A stretch of 43,957 nucleotides of DNA from Parcubacteria group bacterium (GTDB lineage Bacteria > Patescibacteriota > Minisyncoccia > JACPHC01): contig JACPHC010000009.1 of assembly GCA_016188775.1 (NCBI GenBank), positions 1-43,957 of the forward strand, written 5' to 3'. The translations under genes and the position numbers were made by a program. Below are positions 272-43,782 of this stretch, piece after piece (the first letter of the stretch is position 1; each line of letters begins with the position of its first letter). The notes under the pieces were generated by a model, which saw only the letters and a list, made by a program, of their open reading frames with translations, was not told where the DNA came from and made no database searches.

Positions 272-300
272 ATTCTTACGAGGCTAAGCCTCGTAAGAAT
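272..300. repeat. REP-like hairpin ATTCTTACGAGGC-TAA-GCCTCGTAAGAAT
   Basis: Perfect 13-bp stem; the core TTACGAGGCTAAGCCTCGTAA recurs at ~29056-29076. Confidence 0.8.
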
Positions 301-384
301 TAATGAGTTGATTTATTGTAGTGAGGTAGGGGTTGACTATTTTTTATAAAACTTTTATTCTTATTAAATTAAGACGAATTCATT

Positions 385-633
385 ATGGGAGTACCAACGC
401 AAAGGCATACAAAATCAAGAAGAAACAAGGGCCGATCGCACATGGCTTTAAAACAGCCGGTTTTTTCTTATTGCGCCAAATGCCATGTCAAAAAAATGCC
501 GCATCAGATTTGCGAAAACTGCGGCTATTACGGCGGCAAAGAAGTTATTGACGTTTTGGCCAAGCTTGAGAAAAAGGAACGAAAGAAAAAGAAAAAAGAC
601 TTGGCGGTTCAAGAACAAAAAGCCGGAAAATAA
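385..633 (+). CDS. rpmF: 50S ribosomal protein L32 with Lys-rich C-terminal extension
   Basis: [23 protein letters not shown]...[11 protein letters not shown] zinc motif. Confidence 0.95.
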
Positions 634-644
634 ATTAACTATAT

Positions 645-783
645 TAAAAAGCGAAGGAAATGGATTTTTCAAATCGTCTCCCTGCGGGAGATCTCCCGTA
701 GGGATGACAGGCGGGGTCGGCCAAAATTCGCAAAGCGAATTTTGGGGTGAAGGCGATTTGAAAAATTCGTTTCTGGAGCTTTG
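645..783. repeat. ~108-bp palindromic element carrying a nested 31-bp hairpin (677-707); inverted partner at 1286-1393
   Basis: Reverse complement of 1286-1393 matches apart from the insert and about 2 substitutions. Confidence 0.9.
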
Positions 784-817
784 TTTAATTTTATTTATAA
801 ATTTAAACAAAATTGGT

Positions 818-1279
818 ATGTCTTCAAGGCATCTATCCAGATCTATAGCCATGCAAAGCCTCTACGAGTGGGATTTTAGGGGCAGTGGTCTTGATGATCT
901 TCAAAAAATCGTTCAAAGAAATATAGCTGAATTTGGACCGGGACTTGAAGACACGAATTTTGTCCATCAGCTTATTAGCGGCGTTTTGGAACACAAAGAA
1001 GAACTGGATAAAATCATTGAAAAAACGGCTCCGGAATGGCCAATCGGGCAGATTACCGCGGTTGACCGCAATGTTTTGCGTCTCGGTCTTTATGAGCTTT
1101 TATTTAGCAAGCGGGAGGAGGTGCCGGCCAAGGTGGCGATAAACGAAGCCATTGAATTGGCTAAAACTTTTGGCGGTGAAACTTCCGGCAAGTTTGTTAA
1201 CGGCGTTTTGGGGACTATTTATCGGGAAATAGGAGAGCCGGGAAAAGACGAGACTTCAAAATCTAAAAAAGAAGATTAA
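818..1279 (+). CDS. nusB: Transcription antitermination factor NusB
   Basis: [19 protein letters not shown]...VDRNVLRLG...[14 protein letters not shown]...FVNGVLG; start moved to ATG 818 from the ORF-track 485. Confidence 0.95.
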
Positions 1280-1285
1280 CTTTTT

Positions 1286-1393
1286 CAAAGCTTCGGAAAC
1301 GAATTTTTCAAATCGCCTTCACCCCAAAATTCGCTTTGCGAATTTTGGCCGACCCCGCCTGCGATTTGAAAAATCCATTTCCTTCGCTTTTTA
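1286..1393. repeat. Palindromic element, inverted copy of 645-783
   Basis: Internal stems TTTTTCAAATCG/CGATTTGAAAAA and CCAAAATTCGC/GCGAATTTTGG. Confidence 0.9.
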
Positions 1394-1400
1394 TTAATTC

Positions 1401-2096
1401 ATGGCGGAATTAAGCGAACTGGAAAAAAAAATTGGCGTTGAATTTAAAAATAAAGACCTGCTTTTACAGGCCTTGGTTCATCGTTCTTATTTAAATGAAA
1501 ACCCCAATTTTAAAGTCAAGCATAACGAGCGATTGGAATTTTTAGGGGACGCGGTTTTAGAGCTTGTCGTTTCCGATTATCTTTACGAGCAATATCCCCA
1601 AGAACCGGAAGGGCAGATGACCGCCTGGCGGGCCGCTTTAGTAAACGCTAATATGCTTTTTGATATAGCCGCGAAATTGGGATTGGGCAATTATCTTCTT
1701 CTTTCCCGAGGCGAGGCTAAAGACATAAATAAAGCTCGGATGTATCTTATCGCCAATGCTTTTGAGGCCTTGATCGGCGCTATTTATCTTGATCAGGGGA
1801 TAGAAGCGGCTCAAATTTTTATTGAAAAAAATGTCTTGGTTGAATTGGGGCGAGTCATTAAAGAAAAACTTTATCGGGATTCAAAGAGTTTATTTCAAGA
1901 AGAGGCGCAGGATAAAGCCGGCATTACTCCGATTTACGAAGTTTTGAGAGAATGGGGCCCGGATCACGCCAAACATTTCGTCATTGGCGTTTTTTTAGGC
2001 GATGAACTGGTGGCTCAAGGCGAAGGAATGTCAAAACAATCGGCCCAGCAGGAAGCGGCCAAAGAAGCGTTAAAGGTTAAAAATTGGGGCAGTTAA
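1401..2096 (+). CDS. rnc: Ribonuclease III
   Basis: NERLEFLGDAVL signature; C-terminal dsRBD (GPDHAKHF, GMSKQSAQQEAA). Confidence 0.97.
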   Translation: MAELSELEKKIGVEFKNKDLLLQALVHRSYLNENPNFKVKHNERLEFLGDAVLELVVSDYLYEQYPQEPEGQMTAWRAALVNANMLFDIAAKLGLGNYLLLSRGEAKDINKARMYLIANAFEALIGAIYLDQGIEAAQIFIEKNVLVELGRVIKEKLYRDSKSLFQEEAQDKAGITPIYEVLREWGPDHAKHFVIGVFLGDELVAQGEGMSKQSAQQEAAKEALKVKNWGS

Positions 2097-2099
2097 TTT

Positions 2100-4241
2100 A
2101 TGTTAAAGCGTCTTGAAATTTCAGGGTTTAAATCTTTTGCCAAAAAAATCTCTTTGGAATTTCCGGGCCGGGTTTCGGCTATTGTCGGACCGAACGGTTC
2201 GGGAAAATCCAATATCGCCGACGCAATTCGCTGGGTGATGGGAGAACAAAGCTTGAAAGCGCTGCGAACGAAAGACGGCGAAGATTTGATTTTTAGCGGA
2301 TCAAACGTTGCTTCTCGGATTGGCAAAGCCAGCGCCGAACTTATTTTTGACAATATCTCTCGCTGGTTTCCCGTTGATTTGGACGAGGTTGTGATTTCAA
2401 GGAAAAGTTATCGCGGCGGGGAGAATCAATATCTTATCAATAATTCTCCGGTTCGCCTGAAAGACGTCGTGGAGATGTTGGCCAAAGTCGGAGTGGGTTC
2501 AAAAGGGTACAGTATTATCGCTCAAGGCGCGGCTGATTCATTGCTGGCCGCCTCGGACAAAGAAAGACGCGAAATGATTGAAGAAGCGCTGGGATTGAAA
2601 GAATTCCGGCTCAAAAAAAACGAAACGGAGAGAAAATTGTCTGAAACCGACAATAATCTCGCACAGGCGAGAGTTTTGATCGATGAAATATCTCCGCGGC
2701 TCAAAACTCTTTCCCGTCTTGCTTTAAAAGTTAAAGAAAGGGAAGATAAGGCCGCCCGGCTTAAAATTTTAGAAACTCAATATTTCGCCGGCGAATTAAA
2801 TAAAATAAAATCAAAAAAACAAAGTATCGAGGAAAGGAAAAATCTTTTTGAAAAAGAATTGGCAGCGGCTAAAAATTCCATTTTTAAATTACGCGAGGAT
2901 CAAAACAAGGAAGAAGAAGTGGCGCCCGCTTCTTTAAACGATTTAAATCGGCTTAATTTGGAAACGGCGAAATTAGACGAAATTGAAACAAAATTGACTC
3001 GCGATTTGGGCCGTGTTGAAGGATTAATGGAGGCTGAACTGGAAACGGAAAAATTGGAATATCAGCCCGTCACTTTAAGTTATGCCAAGGCCAGTTTGGA
3101 AAACCTCCGGCAAATTCTCAAGGATGGAAAAGTTAGCGAGGCTCTTAATTTTTTGGACGAATTAATTCGGAAATTGATTTCCGGTAAAATTGTTTCCCAA
3201 CAAAAGACGAGCGTTGAGAAAAACCTTTTTTTAAAAAAACAGGAAAAAGACATTAAGAATCAACTGGCTGAAATTTTTCAAAAAAAAGATCAAATTAAGG
3301 AAGAAATAAACAAATTAAATTTCGCTATTGCCGGCTGGCGGGAAAGATTGGCCGGAATTAAACAAGGTCTTGCCCAAGAAGAAAAAAAATTTTCCGCCCA
3401 AGAAGAAATTTTTCGATCCGTTGTTTTGGAAGAAGATAAAATCGGACTGGAAGAAAATCAGGTCCTGCGATTTGCCGAAGAGGCTGGAATTGCCAAAGAC
3501 TCTCTGGCGATTTTACCGGCCGGTCCGGTTCCTGATTTTTATCAGATTCAAAAATTAAGAAGGGAAGTGGAGTCTATTATGAATGTTGATCCGGAGGTGC
3601 TGAAAGAACACGACGCGGTTTCATTGAGGCATCAATTTTTAACGACTCAAACCGGAGATTTGGAAAAAGCTTCGGCGAGCCTCCGTGATTTAATCCGAGA
3701 ATTAGATCAAAAAATCGATCGGGATTTTCGCGCGGGTTTGGCCGAAATATCCGAAGAATTTAATCGTTATTTTCGAATGATTTTTGGCGGCGGCCGAGCC
3801 AATCTTTATTTAGTTTCAGAAAAAAAAGAAAAATATAATTTGGAAGGCGAAAATAGTCAAAACGGAGATATAGCGGAAAATGACGCTTATGCCGGATGCG
3901 CGATTTCAGCGGAAATACCGGGTAAAAAAATCAAAGGACTAAACGCTCTTTCCGGCGGGGAGAGATCGCTGACGGCCTTGAGTCTTCTTTTTGGCATTGT
4001 GGCGGTCAACTCTCCGCCGTTTTTAGTTTTTGACGAGATTGACGCGGCTTTAGACGAGTCTAATTCGCGACGTTTCGCCAATATTTTTAAGGATTTATCC
4101 CAAAAAACGCAGTTTGTGATTATCACTCATAATCGCGAGACAATGTCCGAGGCCGATGTTCTCTACGGCGTGACTTTAGCCGAAGACGGATCGTCAAAAA
4201 TTATTTCGCTCAAATTTAGCGAGAAAACAACAGTTGCGTAA
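2100..4241 (+). CDS. smc: SMC-family ATPase, short form (713 aa)
   Basis: GFKSF, Walker A GPNGSGKSN, LSGGE signature, Walker B FDEIDAALD, IITHN. Confidence 0.9.
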   Translation: MLKRLEISGFKSFAKKISLEFPGRVSAIVGPNGSGKSNIADAIRWVMGEQSLKALRTKDGEDLIFSGSNVASRIGKASAELIFDNISRWFPVDLDEVVISRKSYRGGENQYLINNSPVRLKDVVEMLAKVGVGSKGYSIIAQGAADSLLAASDKERREMIEEALGLKEFRLKKNETERKLSETDNNLAQARVLIDEISPRLKTLSRLALKVKEREDKAARLKILETQYFAGELNKIKSKKQSIEERKNLFEKELAAAKNSIFKLREDQNKEEEVAPASLNDLNRLNLETAKLDEIETKLTRDLGRVEGLMEAELETEKLEYQPVTLSYAKASLENLRQILKDGKVSEALNFLDELIRKLISGKIVSQQKTSVEKNLFLKKQEKDIKNQLAEIFQKKDQIKEEINKLNFAIAGWRERLAGIKQGLAQEEKKFSAQEEIFRSVVLEEDKIGLEENQVLRFAEEAGIAKDSLAILPAGPVPDFYQIQKLRREVESIMNVDPEVLKEHDAVSLRHQFLTTQTGDLEKASASLRDLIRELDQKIDRDFRAGLAEISEEFNRYFRMIFGGGRANLYLVSEKKEKYNLEGENSQNGDIAENDAYAGCAISAEIPGKKIKGLNALSGGERSLTALSLLFGIVAVNSPPFLVFDEIDAALDESNSRRFANIFKDLSQKTQFVIITHNRETMSEADVLYGVTLAEDGSSKIISLKFSEKTTVA

Positions 4242-4268
4242 TTTTCATCTTTTGCTATTATAGAAGCA

Positions 4269-5876
4269 ATGGAAAACGAAACGGTGATTTTTCTTAAAAA
4301 AGAAGAAGATATCAGTCTGATTTTGAAAAGATTGGACGCGGCGCGCTCTAAATTTGTTATTTTTAATTTTCCTTCAAAATCGAAAATTTTCGAAATGAAA
4401 AGTTGGTTGAGAATTCTTAAAGAAGAGGCGGAGCATCTTGGGAAAAATATCGCCATTGAAACCGACGACGAAAAGGGGATTAAGCTTTGCCAAAATCTTG
4501 GCATTGAGACGTATTTTCCGAATCAGGGCGAAAACGAAGAGTCGGAGAATATTAGGAATGAGGCCGAATTGAAAATCCAGGAAGTTAAAAATGAAAATTG
4601 GCCCGAATCTCTTCGTTTAACCAATAATGACCAGCCGAGCGGCCATCTTGAAACTTGGTTTAAAAACGGCAAGAAAAAATCTCCGGATGGCGAGATGGAA
4701 GAAAAAAAATCGTGGATTTTAAGACCTTTGGCAACTCATTTTTTGCTTTCTATTTTTATTCTTTCCTTTTCCGTTTTTGTTTTGACTATTCTTTTTATTT
4801 TGCCGAGAGTTGATGTTAATCTCAAACTTAAAGAGGAAGTCATTGAAGATGATTTGAAAATTACGGCGAAAAAAGACAGCTTAATTGTTGATCAGACGGG
4901 ATTAGTCATTCCGGCCGTGGTTTTTTCTCAAGAATCTTCGAAAAAAATTGAATTTGAAGCCACCGGCAAAAAAGAAGCCGAAGAGAAGGCGAGCGGCAGA
5001 ATCGAAGTTTTTAACGCTTACAATTCCAAGCCGCAGACTTTGGTCGCCACCACCAGGTTTGAGTCCAAAGACGGAAAAATTTTTCGAATGATTAAAGCCG
5101 CGACCATTCCGGCCGCGACAATTAAAAACGGTCAGTTAACGCCTTCAAGCGTTTTTGTCGAAGTTCGGGCCGACAAACCGGGAGAAGAATATAATATCGG
5201 CCCGAGCGACTTTACGATTCCGGGATTTGCCGGCTCTGATAAATTTAAAGGATTTTACGGAAAATCTCGTCAGGCCATGGAAGGCGGAGCTCAAGGAAAA
5301 ATAAATTTCATTACCGAGGAAGATATTAAAAAAGCTTCAGAATTTTTAAAAAATGATTTAGCCAAAGAAGCGACAACTTCTTTAAAAAGTAAAATTTCTT
5401 CGCCTCTTGATTGGATTCCCGGCGCCGATGAAATTGTTGTTTCCGAATCTAATATTTCTCAGGCGGGGAAAATCGGGCCAAAAGGTTCGGCGTTTATGAA
5501 AATAGTTTTTCAAGCGATTGTTTTTGACCAAAACGATTTAAACCGTTTGGTTGACGAAAAATTAAAAAATAAAATTAAAAATAATGAACGCTTGGTCCCC
5601 GAAATCAGCGATTTGGCGTTTTCGGGCATCGCGAAGAATTTTGAGAAAGGAATTTTGACGTTTAGCGTCAACGTCAAGGCCAAAAAAACAAAATTAATTG
5701 ATCAGGACCGGCTGATTGAAGAATTAAAAGGCCAGAGCGAGGCCGACATAAAAAATTATTTTTCTTCCAAGTCCGATATTTTAGCCGCGGCCTCGGTGAA
5801 TTACTGGCCTTTTTGGGTCAGCCACATTCCCAAGTTTTCAAAAAGCATTAATTTAATAATCGAACCAAAGTATTGA
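4269..5876 (+). CDS. Single-pass membrane protein with a probable baseplate-J-like extracytoplasmic domain
   Basis: TM segment FLLSIFILSFSVFVLTILFIL, then ASGRIEVFN...TRF...VEVRADKPGEEYNI; family recalled from motif similarity only. Confidence 0.6.
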   Translation: MENETVIFLKKEEDISLILKRLDAARSKFVIFNFPSKSKIFEMKSWLRILKEEAEHLGKNIAIETDDEKGIKLCQNLGIETYFPNQGENEESENIRNEAELKIQEVKNENWPESLRLTNNDQPSGHLETWFKNGKKKSPDGEMEEKKSWILRPLATHFLLSIFILSFSVFVLTILFILPRVDVNLKLKEEVIEDDLKITAKKDSLIVDQTGLVIPAVVFSQESSKKIEFEATGKKEAEEKASGRIEVFNAYNSKPQTLVATTRFESKDGKIFRMIKAATIPAATIKNGQLTPSSVFVEVRADKPGEEYNIGPSDFTIPGFAGSDKFKGFYGKSRQAMEGGAQGKINFITEEDIKKASEFLKNDLAKEATTSLKSKISSPLDWIPGADEIVVSESNISQAGKIGPKGSAFMKIVFQAIVFDQNDLNRLVDEKLKNKIKNNERLVPEISDLAFSGIAKNFEKGILTFSVNVKAKKTKLIDQDRLIEELKGQSEADIKNYFSSKSDILAAASVNYWPFWVSHIPKFSKSINLIIEPKY

Positions 5877-5929
5877 CTTTTCATTATTTTATTTATAGAA
5901 TTCTTTTTAGCCTCTTTTGAGAGGAATAT

Positions 5930-6045
5930 TTTGTTTATTATGCAAACGAGTATGAATCGAGCGAGGCGAGTTGGTCGAGCCGAGCGAGAACCTTTCATAA
6001 CAAAGCATTATCACAATACCGCGCCGCTTGCGGCGCGGATGCTTT
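5930..6045. repeat. Structured intergenic region upstream of infA, including hairpin CCGCGCCGC-TT-GCGGCGCGG
   Basis: GC stem 6019-6038 enclosed by AAAGCAT/ATGCTTT, ending immediately before ATG 6046. Confidence 0.65.
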
Positions 6046-6297
6046 ATGGTCGAAAATAAAGATAAAGACCAACGTCAAAAAGTAATAAAAAAAACCGGTA
6101 TCGCTCTTGAAGCTCTTCCGGCCGCGACCTTTAAAGTTAAATTGGATTCGGGAGAAGAAATTTTAGCTCATCTTTCCGGAAGATTGCGGATGAATCATAT
6201 TCGTATTTTGCCCGGCGATCGGGTGACGGTTGAATTATCCCCTTATGATTTAACTAAAGGCAGAATAGTTTATAGGGGGCTAAAATCAATCGCTTGA
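6046..6297 (+). CDS. infA: Translation initiation factor IF-1
   Basis: [10 protein letters not shown]...[38 protein letters not shown]. Confidence 0.96.
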
Positions 6298-6327
6298 TTT
6301 TAGCGGGAAATTTTTTAAATATAATAA

Positions 6328-6441
6328 ATGAAAGTAAGATCTTCCATTAAAAAAATATGCGCCAAATGTAAAATTGTCCGCCGTCAAAGACGGCTTTATG
6401 TTGTTTGTTCCAATCCAAAACACAAACAACGGCAAGGTTAA
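6328..6441 (+). CDS. rpmJ: 50S ribosomal protein L36 (absent from the ORF track)
   Basis: Manual translation [37 protein letters not shown]. Confidence 0.97.
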
Positions 6442-6446
6442 ATTTA

Positions 6447-6612
6447 TAGACCTTTTGCAAAATAATCTTTTCTACTCCAATTCTCAAATTTCGGGTGTCA
6501 ACCCTACGGGTGATCTCCCGTAGGGAGACAAATTATTCAGAGCTTCTCAACGTATTTTGATTAAAATACGCTTCGTCGCTCTTCATAATTTTCGCTGAGA
6601 ATTTCCGGAGTA
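6447..6612. repeat. Palindromic element (RPE-1-like architecture) with nested hairpin 6496-6530; right arm merges with the rpsM 5' end
   Basis: Terminus TAGACCTTTTGCAAAATAAT; inner CGTATTTT/AAAATACG; TACTCCAATTCTCA is complementary to TGAGAATT(TCC)GGAGTA. Confidence 0.75.
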
Positions 6613-6981
6613 AATATACCTGATAATAAAAAAATAGTTATTTCTCTGTCTTATCTTTATGGGATTGGGATTCCTTTGGCCGAGAAGATTTTGGAAAAAC
6701 TAGCCATTGATCCAGCCATTAAAGCCAATCAGCTTTCTGCCCCAATGCAATCTCAATTAAAAGACGAGATTGAAAAAAATTATAAAGTGGAAGGCGAGCT
6801 AAGACGGGAAATAATGATGAATATTAAAAGATTGAAAGATATCGGCGTTTATCGAGGCTTGCGCCATTCCAGGGGTTTGCCGGTGCGGGGACAACGCACT
6901 AAAACTAATTCGAGAACCCGAAGAGGCAATGTCAGAAAAACAATGGGTTCCGGCCGGAAACAGTCGTCTGAAAAGACATAA
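6595..6981 (+). CDS. rpsM: 30S ribosomal protein S13, probable CTG start
   Basis: (M)[24 protein letters not shown]...[18 protein letters not shown]; in-frame TAA at 6586-6588 and no ATG before the conserved N-terminus. Confidence 0.93.
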
Positions 6982-6985
6982 AATT

Positions 6986-7429
6986 ATGGGTAAAAAGAGA
7001 ATAATTCAAAAAAACGAACCTCAATCCGAAGAAATTAAAAAAGACGGAGCGAGTAAAAAAGGGGAAAAAATAATAAGCGCTAAAATCAGCCGCGGCGTTG
7101 TTCATGTGTTTGCTACCTACAACAACACCATAATCAGCGCTACCGATCCGGCGGGCAATGTTTTGATTTGGGCTTCGGCCGGCAACATCGGTTTCAAGGG
7201 AACTAAAAAATCGACGCCCTTTGCCGCTTCCAAAACCGCGGAGGTTGTTTCGGAAAAAATAAAAAAAATTGGCATCACCGACATTGATATAATGATTAAA
7301 GGAATCGGAGCTGGCCGAGATTCAACTTTAAGATCGCTGGCCAACGCCGGTTTTAATATTAATCTTATCAGGGATATTACTTCAATTCCGCATAATGGCT
7401 GCCGTCCGCCCAAAGTAAGACGAGTTTAA
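6986..7429 (+). CDS. rpsK: 30S ribosomal protein S11
   Basis: ATYNNTII...GFKGTKKSTPFAA...IPHNGCRPPKVRRV. Confidence 0.96.
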   Translation: MGKKRIIQKNEPQSEEIKKDGASKKGEKIISAKISRGVVHVFATYNNTIISATDPAGNVLIWASAGNIGFKGTKKSTPFAASKTAEVVSEKIKKIGITDIDIMIKGIGAGRDSTLRSLANAGFNINLIRDITSIPHNGCRPPKVRRV

Positions 7430-7435
7430 TTTGTT

Positions 7436-8059
7436 ATGAAGAAACCGAAAGAGAAAATTTCCAGAAGAATCGGCGAAAATCTTTTTTTAAAGGGAGAACG
7501 TTCTTTTTCTCAAAAATCCGCCATGATCAGAAAGCCATATCCGCCCGGTCAGCATGGACAGAAAAGGAAAAGGGGAGCGGTTTCCGAGTTTGGCCGGCAG
7601 CTGGTTGAAAAACAAAAATTAAAGTTTATGTACGGTCTTCGAGACAGGCAGTTTAAGCGATATATCAAGGAATCAACAGCCGCTAAAGGCGAGACCGGCG
7701 ATAATCTTCTTAGAAAATTGGAAATGAGATTGGATAACGTTATTTATCGTTTGGGTTTTGCTTTTTCGCGAAGCATCGCTCGCCAACTGGTTGGTCATGG
7801 CCATTTTACTTTAAACGGAAAACGGGTGACTCTTCCCTCTCAAGAGGTTAAAATCGGCAATTTAATTAAAATTCGGCCCGCTTCGGAGACCAAACAGATG
7901 TTTTCGGATATAAAAACGGTTTTAAAAAAATATAAGACGCCTTCTTGGCTTTCTCTTGATAAAGATAAACTGGAAGGCAAAATAATAGGCCGGCCAGAAA
8001 AAGAAGAAATAGGTTTTTCCGGCAATCTCTCGGCCATAGTTGAATATTATTCAAGGTAG
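7436..8059 (+). CDS. rpsD: 30S ribosomal protein S4
   Basis: PPGQHG, LEMRLDNVIYRLGF, ARQLVGHGH, IVEYYSR. Confidence 0.97.
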   Translation: MKKPKEKISRRIGENLFLKGERSFSQKSAMIRKPYPPGQHGQKRKRGAVSEFGRQLVEKQKLKFMYGLRDRQFKRYIKESTAAKGETGDNLLRKLEMRLDNVIYRLGFAFSRSIARQLVGHGHFTLNGKRVTLPSQEVKIGNLIKIRPASETKQMFSDIKTVLKKYKTPSWLSLDKDKLEGKIIGRPEKEEIGFSGNLSAIVEYYSR

Positions 8060-8066
8060 TTTAAAA

Positions 8067-8146
8067 AAATAAAGGAGTGGGGTATATTTTGCCACCTCAC
8101 TGCTCCGCATGAGGATTCCGTCAAAATATGCCCCACTTCTTTATTT
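8067..8146. repeat. 80-bp hairpin element, copy 1 of 2 (other at 28141-28220)
   Basis: Identical 48-bp core GGTATATTTTGCCACCTCACTGCTCCGCATGAGGATTCCGTCAAAATA. Confidence 0.9.
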
Positions 8147-8176
8147 GCAATTAATTATATAATTAAAAATTTTTTT

Positions 8177-9109
8177 ATGATTCCATTACCGCAAAAAATA
8201 AAAATTATTAATAAAAAAGACAATCAGGCGACTTTTGAAATTGAAGGATTGTCTCCGGGTTACGGCATGACTGTCGGCAATAGCTTGAGGCGGGTTTTGC
8301 TTTCTTCGCTTGAAGGTTCGGCGGTTACACTCGTTAAAATTAAGGGCGCGGCTCATGAATTTTCAACCATTCCGGGTGTGCTGGAAAATGTCATTGATAT
8401 TTTGCTTAATCTCAAGCAAGTTCGTTTTAAACTTCATTCAAAAGAACCAAAAAGACTCTTTTTGAAAGTTAAAGGGGAAAAAGACATTAAGGCCGGAGAT
8501 TTTGAAAAATCGACCGATGTCGAGGTTATAACAAAAGATGTTCATATCGTTACTTTATCCGATCCAACCAGCCAGTTTGAAATGGAGATCGAGATTTCTC
8601 GGGGGCTGGGTTTCCAGCCGTCTGAATTTTTAAAAAGAGAAAAAATTGAAATCGGCGCTATTGCCGTTGACGCGATTTTTAGCCCGATCCGCAAAGTAAA
8701 TTATGAAGTTGAAGATATGCGCGTCGGCGAACGAACAGATTTTAATCGTTTGAGCCTTTTTGTTGAAACCGACGGCAGTATCAGTCCGGAAGAAGCTTTT
8801 ATCAGCGCCTCCAAAATTTTAGTTGACCATTTTTCTTTTTTGAAGGATTTTCAAGAGAGCGGCGGGAAAGAAAAAGAAAAAAAGGAAATGATTGAAATTG
8901 AAGATATTTTAAAAACCAAAGTTTCGGATCTTAATCTTTCAATCAGAACCTTAAACGCTCTGAATGAGTCAGGGATAAAGACGGTTGGAGGGTTAATTAA
9001 AAAAACCGAGTCTTCTTTGGGCGAGATAGGCGGGTTGGGAGAAAAGGGGATTAAAGAAATCAAAAAAGCGTTAGGGAAATTGAATTTAACTTTTAAAGAA
9101 GAAAAATGA
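8177..9109 (+). CDS. rpoA: RNA polymerase alpha subunit
   Basis: GYGMTVGNSLRRVLLSSL, HEFSTIPGV, alpha-CTD LSIRTLNAL. Confidence 0.97.
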   Translation: MIPLPQKIKIINKKDNQATFEIEGLSPGYGMTVGNSLRRVLLSSLEGSAVTLVKIKGAAHEFSTIPGVLENVIDILLNLKQVRFKLHSKEPKRLFLKVKGEKDIKAGDFEKSTDVEVITKDVHIVTLSDPTSQFEMEIEISRGLGFQPSEFLKREKIEIGAIAVDAIFSPIRKVNYEVEDMRVGERTDFNRLSLFVETDGSISPEEAFISASKILVDHFSFLKDFQESGGKEKEKKEMIEIEDILKTKVSDLNLSIRTLNALNESGIKTVGGLIKKTESSLGEIGGLGEKGIKEIKKALGKLNLTFKEEK

Positions 9110-9456
9110 GAAAACTTAAAAAAGGAAGGAAATTTGGTTTAAAGACGGGTCCCAGAAAAGCTCTTTTGCGCTCGTTGGCCGAAGCCCTGATTTTGCGCGA
9201 AAAGATTCGGACCACCGAGGCCAAGGCGAAAGAAATCGCCCCGATCGTTGAACGTTATGTGACGAAAGCTAAATCTAAAAACCTCGCTTCTTATCGGAAT
9301 TTTCTTAAAATTTTGCCAAAAGAATCGGCTAAAAAATTGTTCGATGAAATTGCCCCCCGCTATCAGGCGAGATCCGGAGGTTATACTCGGATTGTAAAAA
9401 CGGGTCGACGGTCCTCTGACGGCGGAAAAACCGCGATTTTAGAATTTGTTAAATAA
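9106..9456 (+). CDS. rplQ: 50S ribosomal protein L17
   Basis: KIRTTEAKAKE, RSGGYTRIVK. Confidence 0.96.
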   Translation: MRKLKKGRKFGLKTGPRKALLRSLAEALILREKIRTTEAKAKEIAPIVERYVTKAKSKNLASYRNFLKILPKESAKKLFDEIAPRYQARSGGYTRIVKTGRRSSDGGKTAILEFVK

Positions 9457-9463
9457 TAAAAAA

Positions 9464-9811
9464 ATGGAAAAAAAAGTTCACACCATTGACGCTTCTCGCA
9501 AAAAATTGGGCCGTTTGTCATCCGAAATTGCCATATTGCTTCGTGGAAAAAACAAAGCTTCTTTTCAGCCACACCTTGATGAAGGAAACGAGGTTCGGGT
9601 TATCAATATAGATAAAATGGAATTTTCCGGTAAAAAACTTGATCAAAAAATGTACTATCGCCATTCCGGATATTTGGGCGGATTAAAAACCGAATCTCTT
9701 CGCAAACTTTTGGCGAGAAAACCGGAAGATATTTTAAGGCAAGCTGTTTCCGGAATGCTGCCTAAAAATAAATTAAGACCCAAAATGTTAAAAAAACTTA
9801 TTATCAGATAA
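9464..9811 (+). CDS. rplM: 50S ribosomal protein L13
   Basis: IDASRKKLGRLSSEIA, YYRHSGYLGGLK, AVSGMLPKNKL. Confidence 0.96.
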   Translation: MEKKVHTIDASRKKLGRLSSEIAILLRGKNKASFQPHLDEGNEVRVINIDKMEFSGKKLDQKMYYRHSGYLGGLKTESLRKLLARKPEDILRQAVSGMLPKNKLRPKMLKKLIIR

Positions 9812-9830
9812 AAAGTTTTATAATTTTATT

Positions 9831-10295
9831 ATGGTTATTAAGTCAAAAGAGAAAAAAAAATCCGATTTGAAAGAGGTAAAAGAAAAGGCTCCAAAAGTTT
9901 TAAAAGATAAATACTTTGAAGCTGTTGGCCGGAGAAAAACAGCGGTGGCCCGAGTGCGGCTCTATCCGGGCAAAACTGAATATATCGTTAATGAAAAAAA
10001 ATTCAGCGATTATTTTCCGTTGATTCAATTGCAAAAGATCGTTGAAGATCCGATTAAAAGACTGAAAATTCAGGAGGAGAAAATCGGGATTTCGGCAAAA
10101 GTTGCCGGCGGGGGAATTCACGCTCAAGCCGAGGCGATCCGTCATGGCGTTTCTCGCGCTCTTTTGGATATTGATTCGGAATTTAGAAAACGGCTGAAAA
10201 AGGCCGGGTTTTTAACTCGCGATCCGCGAATGAAAGAGCGCAAAAAATACGGCCTCAAAGGCGCTCGCAAAGCTCCTCAGTGGGCGAAGCGGTAA
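9831..10295 (+). CDS. rpsI: 30S ribosomal protein S9
   Basis: GRRKTAVARVRL, LTRDPRMKERKKYGLKGARKAPQWAKR. Confidence 0.97.
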   Translation: MVIKSKEKKKSDLKEVKEKAPKVLKDKYFEAVGRRKTAVARVRLYPGKTEYIVNEKKFSDYFPLIQLQKIVEDPIKRLKIQEEKIGISAKVAGGGIHAQAEAIRHGVSRALLDIDSEFRKRLKKAGFLTRDPRMKERKKYGLKGARKAPQWAKR

Positions 10296-10301
10296 ACTAT
10301 A

Positions 10302-11300
10302 TCATATTTCAATCGCGAAGATGTTTTGTTCGTTTAAGAAATATAATTTTTTAGACCTCAAATCATAAAACAATTTTTTCGCCGGTTTGTCCGCGATATC
10401 ATAAGTATTCCTATTATCGCGGCCGTCAAGCTCGGCGATTTTTATTTTTCCGTTGACGCTGAAAATAACGTGTTCGTCAGTTTTGGCATACCAGACGGCG
10501 TCATCTATTTTCTCGGAATACCGGCCGATCAATTCTTTTTCGTCTTTTTTTCTTGGCGGTTGAGCGAGCGTTTCTTCAGGCCATAAAACCCAGATTTCTT
10601 TTTCTTTAAGAATCAAAAATTTTTCATTTTTAGAAGAAGGAATGATTTTTTTGACATCGCGATTGATTTCTTTAAAATTTTGTTCTTCCCTTTTTTTTTC
10701 AAGAAGTAACTCTTCTTTGGTGAGTATAAAAATAGAACCGGAGGTTTCAAGAATCTCGGCGTTTTTAATGCTTTCTTTCGCAATCGGCAAAGCATTGATC
10801 GCTGTTTTTTTTGAATCCAGTCCCTCTATTTTCCAAACTATTCCCGTCTCGTCAATCGCGTATTCGTTTTTTTTAATTTTAATTTCCGCGGAAATAATCG
10901 CGGAAAGATTTTTTTGATTTTCCAAGACAAGTTCCGATTTGATATTCTTGGGAATAAGGAAAATTGAAGTCGCTTCAGTCACCAGTTTTGGTTCGACCCT
11001 TAACGTTTTGGACCAGGCTTCAAATCCGTTTTTTTCGACTTTAACGTTCCAATTTTTTGGAAAAAGGCCGGAAATCAATATCGAATTTGAAAAAAACGAA
11101 GTTTTATGTTCTATCTTGTCGTTTAACAGAAGCTGAAAATCTCGTTGGGATGTTTTTAAATAAATTGCCCCGACCGTTACGATTTTCCTTTTTTTAAAAT
11201 CAAAACGCAGTCCCAATGACCATAAAATCACCGCGGGAACGACTATAATAAATAGAAGAAAAAATCCATAGAATAAAATTCGGCGGGTTAATTTAGTCAT
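10302..11300 (-). CDS. Membrane-anchored protein, probable PEGA-like domain plus beta-propeller-like C-terminus
   Basis: N-terminal TM helix; GAIYLKT...ISGLFPKNWNVKVEKNGFEAWSKTLRV. Confidence 0.65.
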   Translation of the reverse strand: MTKLTRRILFYGFFLLFIIVVPAVILWSLGLRFDFKKRKIVTVGAIYLKTSQRDFQLLLNDKIEHKTSFFSNSILISGLFPKNWNVKVEKNGFEAWSKTLRVEPKLVTEATSIFLIPKNIKSELVLENQKNLSAIISAEIKIKKNEYAIDETGIVWKIEGLDSKKTAINALPIAKESIKNAEILETSGSIFILTKEELLLEKKREEQNFKEINRDVKKIIPSSKNEKFLILKEKEIWVLWPEETLAQPPRKKDEKELIGRYSEKIDDAVWYAKTDEHVIFSVNGKIKIAELDGRDNRNTYDIADKPAKKLFYDLRSKKLYFLNEQNIFAIEI

Positions 11301-11367
11301 AAGAATAATAAAAACATTCGACGTTTATTTAATAACTTTTTTTAAAGAGTATAATATTTTCGTGAAC

Positions 11368-11397
11368 TTGCCAAGTAATCTGTTTTTTGCCTAAAAT
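11368..11397 (+). promoter_or_regulatory. Sigma70-type promoter of murA, likely leaderless
   Basis: TTGCCA-18 nt-TAAAAT, 6 nt before ATG 11404. Confidence 0.5.
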
Positions 11398-11403
11398 GAA
11401 ACA

Positions 11404-12687: not shown

Positions 12688-12725
12688 ATATTATAAATCT
12701 CCGTTTCCTTCGCTTGTAATGATTA

Positions 12726-12818
12726 AAGAAGTTATTCTAAAAATTTTTAAGGTCGAGGCGCTTTAATGAAATTATATAATCCGCCGAGGGTGCCTAAAAA
12801 ATTTTAGAATGACTTCTT
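12726..12818. repeat. ~93-bp hairpin element, copy 1 of 2 (other at 16297-16390)
   Basis: Shared core AGGTCGAGGCNCTTTAATGAAATTATATAATCCGCCGAGGGTRCCTAAAAA; locus-specific outer stems. Confidence 0.9.
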
Positions 12819-12855
12819 AGTTATTATTCAGAAAAATTATTTCGCAAAGAGTCTT

Positions 12856-13869: not shown

Positions 13870-14624
13870 ATACTATCGGCCATCAAAAAATAATTAATTT
13901 TTTTAAAAAAAGCCTTGCCAGCGGTAAAGTCGCTCACTCTTATTTTTTTTCCGGCGAGGCCAGTTCAGGCAAATTGACAATGGCGGAATTTTTCGCTCGA
14001 ACGCTTTTGAAATCGGAAAATCTTTCCAATAACCCGGATTTTAAAATTATTGACAAAAACAGCGTCGGTATAGACGATATTCGGGATTTAATTAATTTTT
14101 TAACTTTTAAAAGTTATCAAAATTTTAAAGTCGCCATTATTAATAACGCTGAATTGATGAGTCACGAAGCCCAGTCCGCTATTTTGAAAACCCTTGAGGA
14201 ACCCGCTCCAAAGACAGTTTTAATTTTAACAAGTTCGTCGCCGTCTGGGTTGTTGCCGACTATCTTGTCCCGGACTCTTCAAATTAATTTCCGGCCGGTT
14301 CCGGGGACAGTTAAAGACGAAAAAAAAATTGAAGTAAATCGGGAAGAGACAAGAGAGATGGAGAAAATTTTTAATTCAAGCCTTTTTGGCCGGTTTGAAT
14401 ATTTGGAAAAAAAATGCGTTGACGATAAAGAAAAGGCTGGAGATTTTTTGAATAAAATCCGCGTCTATTTTCGCCAAAAACTTTTAAAGGAAGTTGAGGC
14501 AGGCGAAACGGAGGCGGCTTTAAAAACAAAAAATTATTTGAAATTCATGAATGAAGTCGAAGAAGCCTTAAAATTTAATGTTAATTCCCAAAGGGCATTG
14601 GAAATCTTAATGGCTAAACTATAA
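13866..14624 (+). CDS. holB: DNA polymerase III delta-prime subunit-like
   Basis: HSYFFSG, AQSAILKTLEEP, LLPTILSR. Confidence 0.85.
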   Translation: MNTIGHQKIINFFKKSLASGKVAHSYFFSGEASSGKLTMAEFFARTLLKSENLSNNPDFKIIDKNSVGIDDIRDLINFLTFKSYQNFKVAIINNAELMSHEAQSAILKTLEEPAPKTVLILTSSSPSGLLPTILSRTLQINFRPVPGTVKDEKKIEVNREETREMEKIFNSSLFGRFEYLEKKCVDDKEKAGDFLNKIRVYFRQKLLKEVEAGETEAALKTKNYLKFMNEVEEALKFNVNSQRALEILMAKL

Positions 14625-14629
14625 GCTTT

Positions 14630-16272: not shown

Positions 16273-16296
16273 AAAATTTTTATCAAAACGAGTAAT

Positions 16297-29018: not shown

Positions 29019-29022
29019 AAAT

Positions 29023-29048: not shown

Positions 29049-29116
29049 TACAAGTTTACGAGGCTAAGCCTCGTAAACTTGTAAGCCTCGTAAACTTGTA
29101 GCCTCGTAAACTTGTA
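29049..29116. repeat. REP-like hairpin with tandemly triplicated right arm
   Basis: TACAAGTTTACGAGGC-TAA-GCCTCGTAAACTTGTA followed by two more AGCCTCGTAAACTTGTA units. Confidence 0.9.
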
Positions 29117-33007: not shown

Positions 33008-33242
33008 AAGAGGCCTAATGCGTTATCAGGTAAATAATCGCGTAAACAACCGCTATAAAAACAGAAGATAAAATTAAAGCCAAGTAAATGATTTTTTTTG
33101 GCCATAGGATTAAATTCTTTTCGGCTTTTGATGAATATGACGACTGATAGGATGACGAATAAATCCAGAATTAAGAATTTTAGCATTGGATTCATAATTT
33201 CATTATGCATGACGTGAATTTCTTCGTTTAAATAATCCATTG

Positions 33243-33357
33243 CGTCATTGCGAGAAGCGTAGCGACGAAGCAATCTTTTTGAATATATTGCCTTGCTTCG
33301 TTCGTGATGACAAGGATTGCTTCGTCATTACGTCTTGCTTCATTCCTCGCAATGACA
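33243..33357. repeat. GTCATTGCGAG-type palindromic element, copy 3
   Basis: GTCATTGCGAG...GACGAAGCAATC...GATTGCTTCGTC...CTCGCAATGAC. Confidence 0.9.
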
Positions 33358-33443
33358 GGAAGAGAAATTTCGCATCACGCGTTAATTATACCGTTATTGT
33401 CTTTATTTTCAAAATTTTATATAATTAAAATAATCGTATTATT

Positions 33444-39680: not shown

Positions 39681-39762
39681 TAATTTATAAATCTTTCGCG
39701 AAATAATTTTTTCTGTTTCAAACTATGGGAGTTCAACTCCAATAGTATATAATTGTTTAAAG

Positions 39763-40497: not shown

Positions 40498-40665
40498 ACT
40501 GTTATTTGACGCGATAGTTATAACTCGTAAAAATTACTAATGAATCGATTCATTTTATATTTTTTAGCACTTATAAGCGATAGCAAGTAAGTGCTATAAT
40601 TTAATTTATTAAGTGGCATTATACGGCATCTTTCTTTTTTTTAAAAAAAATGATATAAACTGGGT

Positions 40666-41829
40666 ATGTCTTATCAGGTTTTATACCGAAAATACCGGCC
40701 AAAAAAGTTTTCCGAAATTATCGGCCAAAATCATATCGTTGGTACTTTAATGAATGCCGTAAAATCGGGAAGAGTCGGCCACGCTTATCTTTTTTCCGGG
40801 CCTCGGGGCACGGGAAAAACGACCATCGCGCGGATTTTGGCTAAGACGGTAAATTGCGCCAATTTGTCTAAAATTTCCGGAGGAAATATTGATGACAAAT
40901 TGAGCGTCCGCCGAAGCGAAGCAAAGGCGGACAGCTATTTTTTCGAGCCTTGCAATTCCTGCGAACTCTGCCTTGATTTTAACGAAAGTAGAAATCTTGA
41001 TTTGATTGAAATAGACGCGGCTTCTTCCAGGGGCATTGACGAGGTTCGGGAATTGCGGGAAGGAGCTCGTTTCAGTCCCTCGCGCTCTAAATTCAAAGTT
41101 TACATTATTGACGAAGTTCATATGATGACTAAAGAGGCTTTTAACGCTCTTTTGAAAACATTGGAAGAGCCGCCGGCTCACGCGATTTTTATTCTGGCCA
41201 CGACTGAACCGGATCGCTTGCCTTTGACAATCCGATCTCGCTGTCAGCATTTTCATTTTTGGCGGCCGAGCGTCAATCAAATCATTGAACGTTTAAAATT
41301 TATCAGCCGGGAAGAAAAAATTAAAGCCGAAGAATCGGCTCTTCGTTTGATAGCCAAATCGGCTTCGGGGTCAATGAGAGACGCCGAAAGCCTTTTTGGC
41401 CAGGTGATTACGCTCGAGGACAAAGAGATTAAAAAAGAAGAAGTGGAAGAAATTTTAGGCGTCGCTCCTTCGGAGTTTGTAAAAAATTTTCTCAGGCATG
41501 TTTCTGAAAAAGACGCGCGTTCGGCTATTCATTTGGTCGGCCGTATTTACGACGAAGGCTATGATTTGGGCGAGTTTAATAAAAATTTAATTACTGATTT
41601 AAGACACCTATTGCTTTTAAAAATTGATCCGAAATTTAAAACCGTTTTAAAAGAGGATTTAACTTCTGACGAAATTGAAGAGCTTGAAAAAATGGTTGTT
41701 GTTTTGGACGCGAAAAATTTGGAAAACGGCTTAAAAATTTTTCTTGAAGCTAATCAGAATATAAAAAAATTTGTTTATCCCCAGCTGGCCCTAGAAATGG
41801 CGGTTGTGGAATATTGCGGGATCGTCTAA
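40666..41829 (+). CDS. dnaX: DNA polymerase III subunit gamma/tau (short)
   Basis: LYRKYRP, GPRGTGKTT, EIDAAS, IIDEVHM, NALLKTLEEPP, SRC. Confidence 0.97.
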   Translation: MSYQVLYRKYRPKKFSEIIGQNHIVGTLMNAVKSGRVGHAYLFSGPRGTGKTTIARILAKTVNCANLSKISGGNIDDKLSVRRSEAKADSYFFEPCNSCELCLDFNESRNLDLIEIDAASSRGIDEVRELREGARFSPSRSKFKVYIIDEVHMMTKEAFNALLKTLEEPPAHAIFILATTEPDRLPLTIRSRCQHFHFWRPSVNQIIERLKFISREEKIKAEESALRLIAKSASGSMRDAESLFGQVITLEDKEIKKEEVEEILGVAPSEFVKNFLRHVSEKDARSAIHLVGRIYDEGYDLGEFNKNLITDLRHLLLLKIDPKFKTVLKEDLTSDEIEELEKMVVVLDAKNLENGLKIFLEANQNIKKFVYPQLALEMAVVEYCGIV

Positions 41830-43507
41830 TGGTAGGACATCGCCCTTTGAAGGCGAGTATCTTGGTTCGAGTCCAAGTCCCGCAGCTTCGGTCAGGAGTT
41901 AAAATGAATTTGGCGGGGTGAAGTAGGACATCGCCCTTCTTGCCCCGCCGTAGAGGCGGGGTGAAAAGGCGAGTATCTGGCTTGCCCCGAAGAAAGCGGG
42001 GGTTCGAGTCCAAGTCCCGCAGCCACATTGTATTAATCGGAAAGGGTGCCTCGCGGCTTCGCCACTCGGCATTGAATTCAGCGAGAATTTGCCAGTCATT
42101 TTTGAACGAAACCGAAACCGCTCGCTCCGCGAGCTGTGGGTTCGAGCCGACTTTTTCAAGATAATTTTTCTTTTCAGAAAAATTATCTCCCAAAGCGACA
42201 GAATTAGCTTGGTGAGCGGCTAAAATGAGATTCTTTGTCCGTTCGAGCCAGCGATTGCCCTTTCGCTCAAAATCTTTCAATTTCTGCTCAATATCAATTT
42301 TGCGTGCGAGGATTTTGTTTTTCTTGGCGGTATATTCCTCGCCAGTAATGGTCTTTTCCAAATGAGCGTCTAAAAGCGTGTCCAACTTCTCCTCGCACGC
42401 CTTTACCTCGTTTTTGAGATTTTGAGCGAACAGGGCATCAGATTGGGCGGTGCTCGCTTCATCTGTTTTTAATTGCGCGAGCATCGGTTCCGCCCAATCT
42501 TTCGGTAAAGAAACTTTTTGAAGTATGTCGGAAATCTGCGAGGCGAGAACTTCTTCGCGGATATAGGGTTGCGAACAAACATCTTTCTTTTTCGTACAGC
42601 GATAGTAGACATAGTGCCGACCACTCTTTTTAGTTTTGTCTTCGGCGGTAATGGCGCAACCACACTCTCCGCATTTCAATAATCCGCGAAAAATATATGT
42701 CTTCTCGCCTCGCTTCTTGGGTCGGGACTTTTCCGACATGACTTCTTGGACTTTATCAAAAAGTTTCTTTGTTATCGCTGGCTCATGCTTGCCTTCGTAT
42801 AGCTCGCCGTTGAACTTAAACGCGCCGTAGTAAAACGGATTACGAAGTATCATTTGGATATTGGAAACAGTCAGCCGTTTTCCGTTCCGGCTCACCAAGC
42901 CAATTTCGGTAATTTCATTTCGTAAATCTTTCAGAGAATAATTTTTGGTTGCGTACAATTCAAAAAGTTTTTGGACGAGGCGATAGCGTTCAGGGTCTTT
43001 CACCATTTTGTGATTCACTTTGTCGTTCAAGTATCCGGTAGGGGCAACGCCCGGATATTCGCCTCGTCTTACTTTTTGACGCAACCCTCGTTTTACATTC
43101 TCTGAAAGATTATCAATATAGTATTTGGATTGCCCAAAAGCGATATTCAACATGAATTTTCCTTGCGGCGTGGCATCAAACCAAAAAGTGGGAAATTTTA
43201 GCTCACGAATTTTGGTTGTATCAATCAAATAAATTACTCTGCCGCCATCGACACTGTTTCTAGCCAATCTATCAGGATGCCACGCCAAAATTCCTTGGGC
43301 AAATCCTTTCTCTACGAGCGAGAGCATTTGGTTAAAGATAGGTCGCCCCGGCTCTTTGGCGGTCTGACTTTCTATGAACTCCTGCACTATCTCCAAATGC
43401 TCTCGCTCACCGAACTCACGCAACTCGGTTATTTGCGCCTCAATACTCAAAATTTGCCTATCCGGTTCATCGGTTGATTTTCTTGCGTAGAGAAAGAATT
43501 TGCTCAT
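41750..43507 (-). CDS. Large serine recombinase/integrase; C-terminal ~90 aa is readthrough antisense to the tRNA copies and the end of dnaX
   Basis: YARKS catalytic Ser, DRLARN, recombinase domain, zinc ribbon CGECG...YYRC...C, coiled coil; WLRDLDSNP is the antisense of the tRNA T arm. Confidence 0.93.
41815..41885 (+). tRNA. tRNA-Gln(TTG), no encoded CCA, overlapping the last 15 nt of dnaX
   Basis: Acceptor TGCGGGA/TCCCGCA, D arm GTC/GAC, anticodon arm TCGCC-CTTTGAA-GGCGA, T arm CTTGG-TTCGAGT-CCAAG, discriminator G. Confidence 0.93.
41913..42025 (+). pseudogene. Second, interrupted copy of tRNA-Gln ending in CCA
   Basis: GTAGGACATCGCCCTT / GGCGAGTATCT / GGTTCGAGTCCAAGTCCCGCAGCCA blocks separated by two CTTGCCCCG...CGGGG hairpins. 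Confidence 0.8.
42020..42136. repeat. Left arm of perfect 117-bp inverted repeat (att-like junction at the tRNA 3' end)
   Basis: Base-by-base reverse complement of 43615-43731. Confidence 0.95.
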
Positions 43508-43524
43508 ATCGCTTTTGGGCTAAA

Positions 43525-43782
43525 AATTACTGTCGCTTTGGTTTCCGCCAAAGGCGGAAAAGAAAAAGTCGGCTCACAAATTTCATTTGTATTCCGCTTT
43601 GCGGAATGAACCCCCAGCTCGCGGAGCGAGCGGTTTCGGTTTCGTTCAAAAATGACTGGCAAATTCTCGCTGAATTCAATGCCGAGTGGCGAAGCCGCGA
43701 GGCACCCTTTCCGATTAATACAATGTGGCTGTGTCTCCTGAACAAAATCCGAACTTTTTACCAAACGAACCCCGACGAATGA
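43525..43782 (+). pseudogene. Inverted duplicate of the recombinase 3' end with alternative C-terminus [19 protein letters not shown]
   Basis: 43615-43731 identical to the left arm; interrupted homology blocks CTGTCGCTTTGG and GAAAAAGTCGGCTC extend to ~43525. Confidence 0.85.

Follow-up and report, generated by a model that had tools for sequence, protein, structure and literature searches.

The 43,957-nt contig JACPHC010000009.1 (contig C2 of the Parcubacteria group bacterium assembly GCA_016188775.1; GTDB lineage Bacteria; Patescibacteriota; Minisyncoccia; JACPHC01), which as a whole forms the window of this analysis, raises the question of what has filled its intergenic gaps with small hairpins, and whether one process or several are responsible. 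Bacteria of the candidate phyla radiation are regarded as streamlined, with little room for selfish DNA. The original prediction for this window was of a dense, nesting population of several palindrome families, spread by one active process whose enzyme is encoded elsewhere in the genome. The population is there: every multi-copy family that had been named is present, and all but the hairpins in a tRNA copy (see below) recur on other contigs and are not confined to the few copies first seen. The single process is not borne out, as the genome holds at least three unrelated enzyme/repeat systems together with five families without a cognate gene. The account that we favour, with a probability of roughly 0.6, is of a mixed community of small hairpin repeats in intergenic DNA rather than one system. 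In this community, REP palindromes (family F) accompany a REP-associated tyrosine transposase (RAYT), Ssn-related motifs (SRM; family E) accompany a GIY-YIG nuclease, a further palindrome family accompanies a PaaX/Cas2-like gene, and families A to D and the 6446 type are orphans.

Hairpin repeats in the window and the genome

Self-comparison of the 766,832-nt genome (G+C about 40%) places 43,092 nt (5.6%) in repeats, and on a crude map of open reading frames (ORFs) repeats account for 22,616 of the 87,576 intergenic nucleotides (26%). Single-linkage grouping yields 150 repeat components; most of the 40 largest, which were displayed, fold as hairpins and are mainly intergenic. Hairpins with a stem of at least 14 and a loop of at most 60 number 268 in the genome and 28 in a block-shuffled copy, a roughly tenfold excess of long hairpins. 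They fall into 245 loci, 102 of them in repeat families (88 intergenic) and 143 unique (63 intergenic). Within the window, a dispersed repeat of at least 20 nt occupies 15 of the 21 intergenic gaps of at least 60 nt, in line with the earlier remark that many gaps of more than 60 bp hold an element, and 14 of these 21 gaps fold with a z-score below -2.5.

The families are distinct from ordinary terminators and from catalogued RNA structures. Their hairpins have interiors of 30–50 nt and no T run, and none of the 41 terminator-like sites (GC-rich stem, short loop, T run) in positions 1–20000 coincides with a hairpin of families A to F. In an Rfam search the gathering score was reached by a tRNA-Gln alone, and the permissive mode gave no match on the hairpins.

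Families that bracket an enzyme gene

A comparison of the whole genome with itself and a test of the genes that each family flanks had been proposed as the check, and this found RAYT and GIY-YIG genes bracketed by two of the families. The expectation that the enzymes are encoded elsewhere held for the 272/29049 and 17515 types; for families A, B, C and D and the 6446 type no cognate gene was found.

Family F comprises 9 full palindromes of the TACGAGGCT type and 25 half sites on 5 contigs. In the window, a palindrome with a 14-bp stem and a 1-nt loop (ATTCTTACGAGGCTaAGCCTCGTAAGAAT; 272–300) directly follows the stop of the first ORF, and a second (29048–29116) is followed by two extra tandem half-arms; TTACGAGGCTAAGCCTCGTAA is common to both. 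The only Y1_Tnp gene of the genome (C6:5295-5939, 214 aa; PF01797, E = 4.2e-9, above the cut-off) encodes HFHLLL and YIHLNP motifs and has the palindrome TTACGAGGCT(A/T)AGCCTCGTAA on either side, at C6:5280-5315 and 5949-5969, with the same core as the window copies. One F copy also lies in frame inside the gene, where it is read as YEAKPRK. Judged by its domain, motifs and flanks, this gene appears to encode a distant member of the REP-associated transposases, and the palindromes at 272 and 29049 would be the REPs of the genome's single RAYT-type HUH transposase on C6. Because RAYTs cut and rejoin REPs as single-stranded hairpins, family F most likely spreads likewise, going by the enzyme family.

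Family E is built from units of the form (T/C)GTCATTGCGAG, 6–18 variable nucleotides and GAAGCAATCTC. Its 10-nt core has 56 matches genome-wide, mostly as inverted doublets of two different units. The window holds three such doublets, with the arms GTCATTGCGAG...CTCGCAATGAC in common: one upstream (17515–17610) and one downstream (18917–18995) of an aminoacyl-tRNA synthetase gene, and one with an inner hairpin (33242–33362) that overlaps a spurious 89-aa ORF (33004–33273) without a Pfam match. On C7, a GIY-YIG gene of 96 aa (5168–5458), a single domain with PF01541 over residues 6–78 (E = 3.5e-17), stands between two inverted E units, at 5141(+) and 5493(-), and a decayed second unit of gene plus flanks persists on C10 (81.5% identity over 357 nt). 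The association extends well beyond this genome. The E core is found at 25 of 79 homologue loci from many phyla, on both flanks at 16 of them, and other lineages carry co-varying variants, for example TGTCATTCTGAG or GTCATCCTGAG, in the corresponding flank places.

This layout has a precedent. SsnA, as set out in PMC11893778, is a GIY-YIG nuclease of one domain that cleaves single-stranded DNA next to the NTS/SRM hairpin repeats on the flanks of its gene, and the authors of that paper liken SsnA/SRM to RAYT/REP. The GIY-YIG gene here is bracketed by E units in the same way, so the copies at 17515, 18917 and 33242 would be members of the known Ssn/SRM system, as far as their sequence goes. The paired motifs without a gene look like deletion derivatives of a unit of gene plus motifs. 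A second intact small GIY-YIG gene lies at C3:106110-106657, about 100 nt from a tRNA-Gln (CUG) gene.

A third system was missed by the original prediction. The palindrome at 40556–40601 (TAGCACTTATAAGCGATAGCAAGTAAGTGCTA) belongs to a family of 7 copies, two other members of which bracket a PaaX_M/Cas2-like gene (C3:50395-50955; PF20803, E = 3.8e-22). Three PaaX_M (Cas2-like) genes are present in the genome, each between its own palindrome family; on this comparison of family members, the 40556 palindrome can be assigned to the family that brackets the C3:50395-50955 gene.

A small hairpin after the stop of an 823-aa ATPase gene (39716–39754; CTATGGGAGTTcAACTCCAATAG) has five copies in the genome. 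At C7:11158-12703, two tandem NYN-domain genes stand among SRM doublets and hairpins of this 39722 type. The hairpin was considered as the cognate repeat of the NYN genes and rejected: of 20 loci, no more than 4 have flank repeats scoring at least 14, and this genome itself supplies 2 of those 4. NYN homologues are patchy (18 of 51 class genomes), and some contain in-frame stops.

Repeats that are so widely shared could be artefacts of assembly or binning, in the form of chimeric joins at repeats common to the community. The genome is a metagenome bin of 10 contigs, contig ends lie in repeats, and the community is very rich in the E motif. Metagenome depth rises to very high spikes at the E copies, which fit a motif common to many community members. 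Positions 1–20000 of the window were compared with four groundwater metagenome runs from one study, two of them possibly the source of the assembly, which contain the host genome. Against an artefact, the pieces between hairpins are identical in three runs, with 0–1 differing letters over 0.5–4.6 kb. Moreover, the hairpins lie within conserved gene orders such as rpsD-rpoA, and the genome is estimated to be 100% complete with 0.26% contamination. We regard an artefact as very improbable.

Families without a cognate gene

Families A, B, C and D and the 6446 type bracket housekeeping genes only, and no candidate enzyme gene was found between their copies. They may be non-autonomous hairpin elements that are moved in trans or no longer move. 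No match for rve, DDE_Tnp_1, the TnpB zinc ribbon or IS110 was found in the genome, the remaining transposase families not having been searched.

The nesting that had been described was confirmed in the form of exact filled/empty pairs within the genome, and these involve families A and B and the 6446 type. Family A has constant 30-nt arms and exchangeable contents, which are a 46-nt inner hairpin in 4 copies and, at 3 loci, some 140 nt that include an SRM doublet. Its first window copy (642–796, plus strand) is a composite hairpin in the gap between rpmF (L32) and nusB, with 30-nt outer arms around the 46-nt inner hairpin and a folding energy of -72.4 kcal/mol; the second (1275–1396, minus strand) lies inverted in the nusB/rnc gap. 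The inverted matches between these two places span 87 nt and 35 nt at 92–97% identity. The copies are colinear but for the 31-nt palindrome of family B, which is nested in copy 1 at 677–707 and for which copy 2 is the empty site, with no duplicated bases. The same palindrome is found at 6499–6529, nested in the MITE-like 6446-type element (6446–6600, plus strand), which had likewise been overlooked and which fills the rpmJ/rpsM gap up to the start of the S13 frame. Besides the window's own copy, the 6446 type has seven matches of 46–68 nt on other contigs. Its copies occur both with and without B, which is absent from C6:7098-7263, and again no base is duplicated.

Family B has 5 copies genome-wide. 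In both of its host elements it sits in the unpaired linker beside the inner hairpin, and neither of the two filled/empty pairs shows a target-site duplication. A second inner-hairpin copy of A carries a different insert, a GC mini-hairpin at its apex (C6:27440). New hairpins may tend to land in the unpaired parts of existing ones, which would give rise to the nesting. The gap between the L36 and S13 genes measures 153 nt here and reaches at least 100 nt in only 1 of 39 relatives, which is consistent with insertion.

The reading frame of rpsM (S13) lacks a standard start codon. It opens after a TAA at 6586–6588, the conserved RISGVNIP begins at 6598, and possible starts are CTG (6595) or ATT (6601), the first ATG, GTG or TTG lying at 6676, residue 27. 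The 6446-type element ends exactly in this start region (6586–6610). At the other locus, nusB lies between the two inverted A copies (634–1400), which could pair in a transcript, and copy 2 immediately precedes rnc, the gene for RNase III.

Family C has 14 copies, each with a near-invariant apical core of 40 nt. Two lie in the window on the plus strand, one in the rpsD/rpoA gap on a 24-bp stem (8064–8146) and one in the alr/ftsQ-like gap (28141–28220), and they match at 90% over 82 nt. Mean pairwise identity is 0.90 in the 40-nt core and 0.40 in the 20-nt arms. The stems nevertheless hold together: 91.9% of cells are paired, a figure that falls to 69.5% in shuffles, none of the 500 getting as high, and to 37–48% with partners slid. 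Of the 25 outer-stem pairs, 20 change on both sides. Mismatches are balanced (G.T 14, A.C 15), purines predominate in the 5' arm of all 14 copies, and orientation is mixed relative to both genes and GC skew (8 vs 6). This pattern would fit a hairpin at the level of DNA better than an RNA from one strand. Arms that keep their complementarity while their sequence drifts could reflect either selection for the hairpin or templated correction from arm to arm.

Three further explanations of family C did not hold up. Selection at the RNA level is unsupported, given the balanced mismatches and mixed orientation. Placement of the C core into unrelated, pre-existing terminator hairpins is weakened by the uniformly purine-rich 5' arms, by an inner-stem pattern that the copies share (read by eye from the alignment) and by the co-variation of the arms. 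As for a cognate gene, paired C copies enclose only an infC-like gene, smpB and an M23 peptidase gene. The stretch C1:12369-12989, inside a pair of inverted C copies, separates an infC-like fragment from smpB and has no ORF over about 620 nt.

The 18 copies of family D all lie between genes, and 16 of them are co-oriented with the flanking genes, as 16 of 18 are with GC skew. In the window, the D1 hairpin (12726–12822) lies inside a conserved unit of about 160 nt (12688–12848, plus strand) that opens with the remnant of an A-type arm; the flanks of D1 are conserved, and the component occurs at 8 places. The D2 hairpin (16297–16392, plus strand) occupies the gap between frr and an M50 protease gene and matches the 12726 hairpin at 93%. 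D1 copies are 97–98% identical at 7 other loci, and in the D2 subfamily outer stem positions co-vary copy by copy. A search of 400 other class genomes for the C core, and of 60 for D, found neither, and neither core has a match in viral contigs.

The orphans A, C and D and the 6446 type might instead be structures selected by the host in its transcripts or DNA, such as stabilisers of mRNA 3' ends, RNase III sites or protein-binding hairpins, which were copied a few times and are now fixed. The orphans do lie between co-directional genes, a few to tens of nucleotides from stop or start codons; D follows the direction of its genes, the stem of C co-varies strongly, and a copy of A lies directly upstream of rnc. 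Long hairpins are also frequent in related genomes, at 18.4 loci per 100 kb in 63 relatives' loci compared with 31.9 in this genome and 1.8 in shuffled sequence. The rpsD-rpoA gap is at least 100 nt long in 16 of 62 relatives, where it is filled by unrelated hairpins, as if a hairpin at this junction were either needed or tolerated in a conserved manner. From this class-wide excess and the unrelated hairpins at rpsD-rpoA it follows that some hairpins may serve a host function. On the other hand, C occurs in either orientation with balanced mismatches, which speaks against one selected transcribed strand. The families are also passed over by the terminator pattern and by Rfam, C and D are not found in the other class genomes searched, and the near-identity of D1 at unlinked loci points to recent copying. 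Host selection as the main explanation of the orphans is unlikely in our judgement. At the rpsD-rpoA junction, the relatives' loci L139, L142, L147, L151, L158 and L160 each have a long hairpin or tandem-repeat structure of their own.

Another view is that hairpins arise locally, by template switching during replication (quasi-palindrome correction or inverted duplication), without insertion of a mobile unit. In its favour, 143 of the 245 long-hairpin loci are unique sequences, and such an origin would also suit the arms of C, complementary even where identity among copies falls to 40%, the extra tandem half-arms on the F copy at 29048, and the hairpins in a tRNA copy (see below), which are inverted copies of an adjacent 11-nt motif. 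It cannot, however, put near-identical sequences of 31 to 97 nt at 5 to 18 unlinked loci, nor does it account for families that bracket their own nuclease gene across phyla, and the exact 31-nt filled/empty pairs fit insertion or excision of a defined unit. As a general explanation we find it improbable.

Entry of hairpins into reading frames, a further claim of the original prediction, was seen in one case backed by a relative. An element with 13-nt inverted arms (CCCCGTTAGAAAT / ATTTCTAGCGGGG; 29822–29900) is read in frame as residues 490–516 of a PMT_2 glycosyltransferase; its family, with 20 half sites in the genome, has only these arms in common, the interiors being variable. Just one relative has a locus that extends across the site, the other loci ending short of it; its protein shows a gap of 29 residues at this point, and this alignment backs the hairpin as a probable in-frame insertion. 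In a second, paralogous PMT_2 protein, an imperfect hairpin of 120 nt (32225–32345) is read in frame as residues 221–261. It lies in a loop that varies among 7 relatives, the best of which shows a 16-residue gap; insertion is only plausible here, because the hairpin exists as a single copy. Of the other places listed as single copies, 29827 and 39722 belong to the families described above, and 40903 and 43542 have no convincing copies elsewhere in the genome that would mark them as elements. For annotation, hairpins in this genome create spurious ORFs and ORF extensions.

Several observations weigh against the mixed community of mobile repeats that we favour. The RAYT scores 39.9 bits, below the 80-bit NCBIfam cut-off for REP-associated tyrosine transposase (NF047646), there are just 9 full copies of family F, and families A to D have no assigned enzyme. 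Target duplication can be excluded for B only, the orientation of D would also fit a role at the RNA level, and both the abundance of long hairpins in related genomes and the relatives' own hairpins at rpsD-rpoA show that such structures are not peculiar to this genome. The gene map behind the genome-wide counts is a crude ORF call. Metagenome contigs break at every hairpin family, and in positions 1–20000 no contig of the four runs joins across an empty site, rare variants being invisible in contigs. The host is the sole representative of its family in the genome collection used; the nearest RpoA identity is 57% among 30 class relatives and 59% (full-length) among 79 metagenome loci, and orthologous empty sites are therefore out of reach. 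Near-identical copies of D1 and B, compared by sequence, argue for recent copying; the active propagation that had been claimed found no support in the metagenomes, and current activity of the hairpin families is unproven.

A bolder version of the mixed-community account, which we hold to be rather doubtful, is that small Parcubacteria genomes may host a self-sustaining hairpin community, made up of the RAYT/REP, Ssn/SRM and PaaX-Cas2-like/palindrome systems and of orphans that land in loops. Family C would then be the recognition hairpin of an enzyme acting on DNA, its arms kept by templated correction and not by selection on RNA.

In a 767-kb genome, about one quarter of the intergenic DNA consists of dispersed hairpin repeats of many families, and a RAYT-REP pair occurs there alongside an Ssn-SRM pair, a kind of system described only recently. 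The filled/empty pairs of the 31-nt palindrome offer defined substrates for studying how very small elements move. There are practical consequences as well, since the hairpins break short-read assemblies at every copy and one of them abuts an essential ribosomal gene that is now without a standard start codon.

The tRNA-Gln island, neighbouring features and known systems

The statement that the window contains no transposase was inexact: at 42144–43507, on the minus strand, it encodes a large serine recombinase, recognised by its Resolvase, Recombinase and Zn_ribbon_recom domains. This is the enzyme of an island at tRNA-Gln rather than of the hairpins. The tRNA-Gln (UUG) gene (41815–41886, plus strand), the integration target, is followed by the island junction motif ATGAATTTGGCGGGGTGAA and a partial copy of the tRNA (41905–42020, plus strand). 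The two GC hairpins noted at 41939 and 41979 do lie within this copy, in its anticodon loop and variable region, and were taken for members of the dispersed population. They have no dispersed copies in the genome, and the first is the junction motif repeated in inverted form; they are local inverted copies of that motif, part of the attachment-site architecture of the island and not of the hairpin families.

A 124-nt inverted repeat of 99% identity, with its left arm at 42020–42143 and its right arm at 43608–43731, encloses the recombinase gene and could be a mirrored attachment site or mark an invertible segment. The open frame of the recombinase runs through 41750–43507, across the repeat arm, the tRNA copy and the tRNA in antisense, and the left arm overlaps its 3' end (residues 455–496 of the open frame). 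Homology to a paralogue on C10 stops near residue 464, and the tail of the frame is therefore fortuitous. The C10 paralogue also abuts a tRNA gene, tRNA-Val, and the far end of the tRNA-Gln island lies beyond the contig. A near-identical junction motif, differing in its last bases, stands at the end of a broken tRNA copy on C3, that of the genome's other tRNA-Gln. This tRNA-Gln (CUG) has a 56-nt partial duplicate ending in the motif, with no recombinase nearby, and the region at C3:106110-106657 looks like the relic of an island.

The remaining genes of the window are housekeeping genes, almost all on the plus strand: rpmF, nusB, rnc, smc, infA, rpmJ, rpsM-K-D, rpoA, rplQ, two mreB, PBP2 and several aminoacyl-tRNA synthetases. 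Upstream of infA, positions 5944–6047 form a GC-rich dispersed repeat, with components at 9 places each, that folds no better than its shuffles (z = +1.2) and holds the only strong terminator-like hairpin (6019–6038). In the last gap, of which 350 of 450 nt are repeat, a hairpin with a 24-bp stem (43815–43903) lies within repeated DNA at the contig end. Positions 43900–43957 and C8:1-60 hold one repeat in reverse complement, so the assembly break falls inside a dispersed element.

Among the papers listed by our literature search, none links the Candidate Phyla Radiation or Parcubacteria with REP, RAYT or MITE repeats. Overall, the hairpins are a well-supported and largely ordinary kind of feature in an unusual host, with open details chiefly in family C and the loop-targeted 31-nt palindrome, and most of them can be set beside known systems. 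The island shares with other tRNA islands of large serine recombinases a gene with Resolvase, Recombinase and zinc-ribbon domains beside a tRNA with a partial duplicate (the nearest NCBIfam names, CcrB and XisF, all fall below cut-off); it differs in that the gene lies inside the inverted repeat and that junction-motif hairpins interrupt the duplicate. By layout, the 29822–29900 hairpin resembles the Rickettsia palindromic elements in being read in frame without breaking its gene, whereas its family shares only the 13-nt arms, with differing interiors.

Textbook cases of REPs run to hundreds of copies, as against the 9 full palindromes of family F. The likeness is to the REPtron of E. coli and Pseudomonas, in which a single-copy HUH-Y1 gene stands between its own inverted short palindromes and the palindrome is also dispersed intergenically, a layout set out in PMC6006769. 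Family F differs in the ends of its palindrome (TTAC/GTAA, compared with the GT[AG]G consensus given there), in the copy in frame inside its gene and in its host, the passages searched making no mention of Parcubacteria.

Family E agrees with the NTS/SRM repeats and SsnA of Neisseria and many phyla in having a single-domain GIY-YIG gene between oriented hairpin repeats, some 35 nt long, that start with YGTCATT and finish with AATC. This is a comparison by eye with the NTS of PMC11893778, a semi-palindrome with the head CGTCATT and the tail AATC. The E repeats are also dispersed and often paired. The stem is different, TGCGAG...GAAGCAATCTC in E and TCCCGCG...CGCGGGAATC in NTS, as are the doublets formed by E units with unlike inner parts and the decayed second copy of the gene. 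In Neisseria the role shown is in natural transformation; the present host is an uncultured groundwater bacterium.

Families A and D and the 6446 type recall bacterial MITEs and the ERIC, Correia and RUP repeats, being imperfect palindromes of 95–165 nt, strictly intergenic, with 4–18 copies between tightly packed genes. They differ from MITEs in having no definable target duplication and no parent insertion sequence or DDE transposase among the families searched in the genome. A further difference is that A combines constant arms with an exchangeable interior and C a constant interior with differing arms. Families F and E, then, add new members to systems already described. A, D and the 6446 type look like MITE/ERIC repeats without a parent element, and B and C are less usual.

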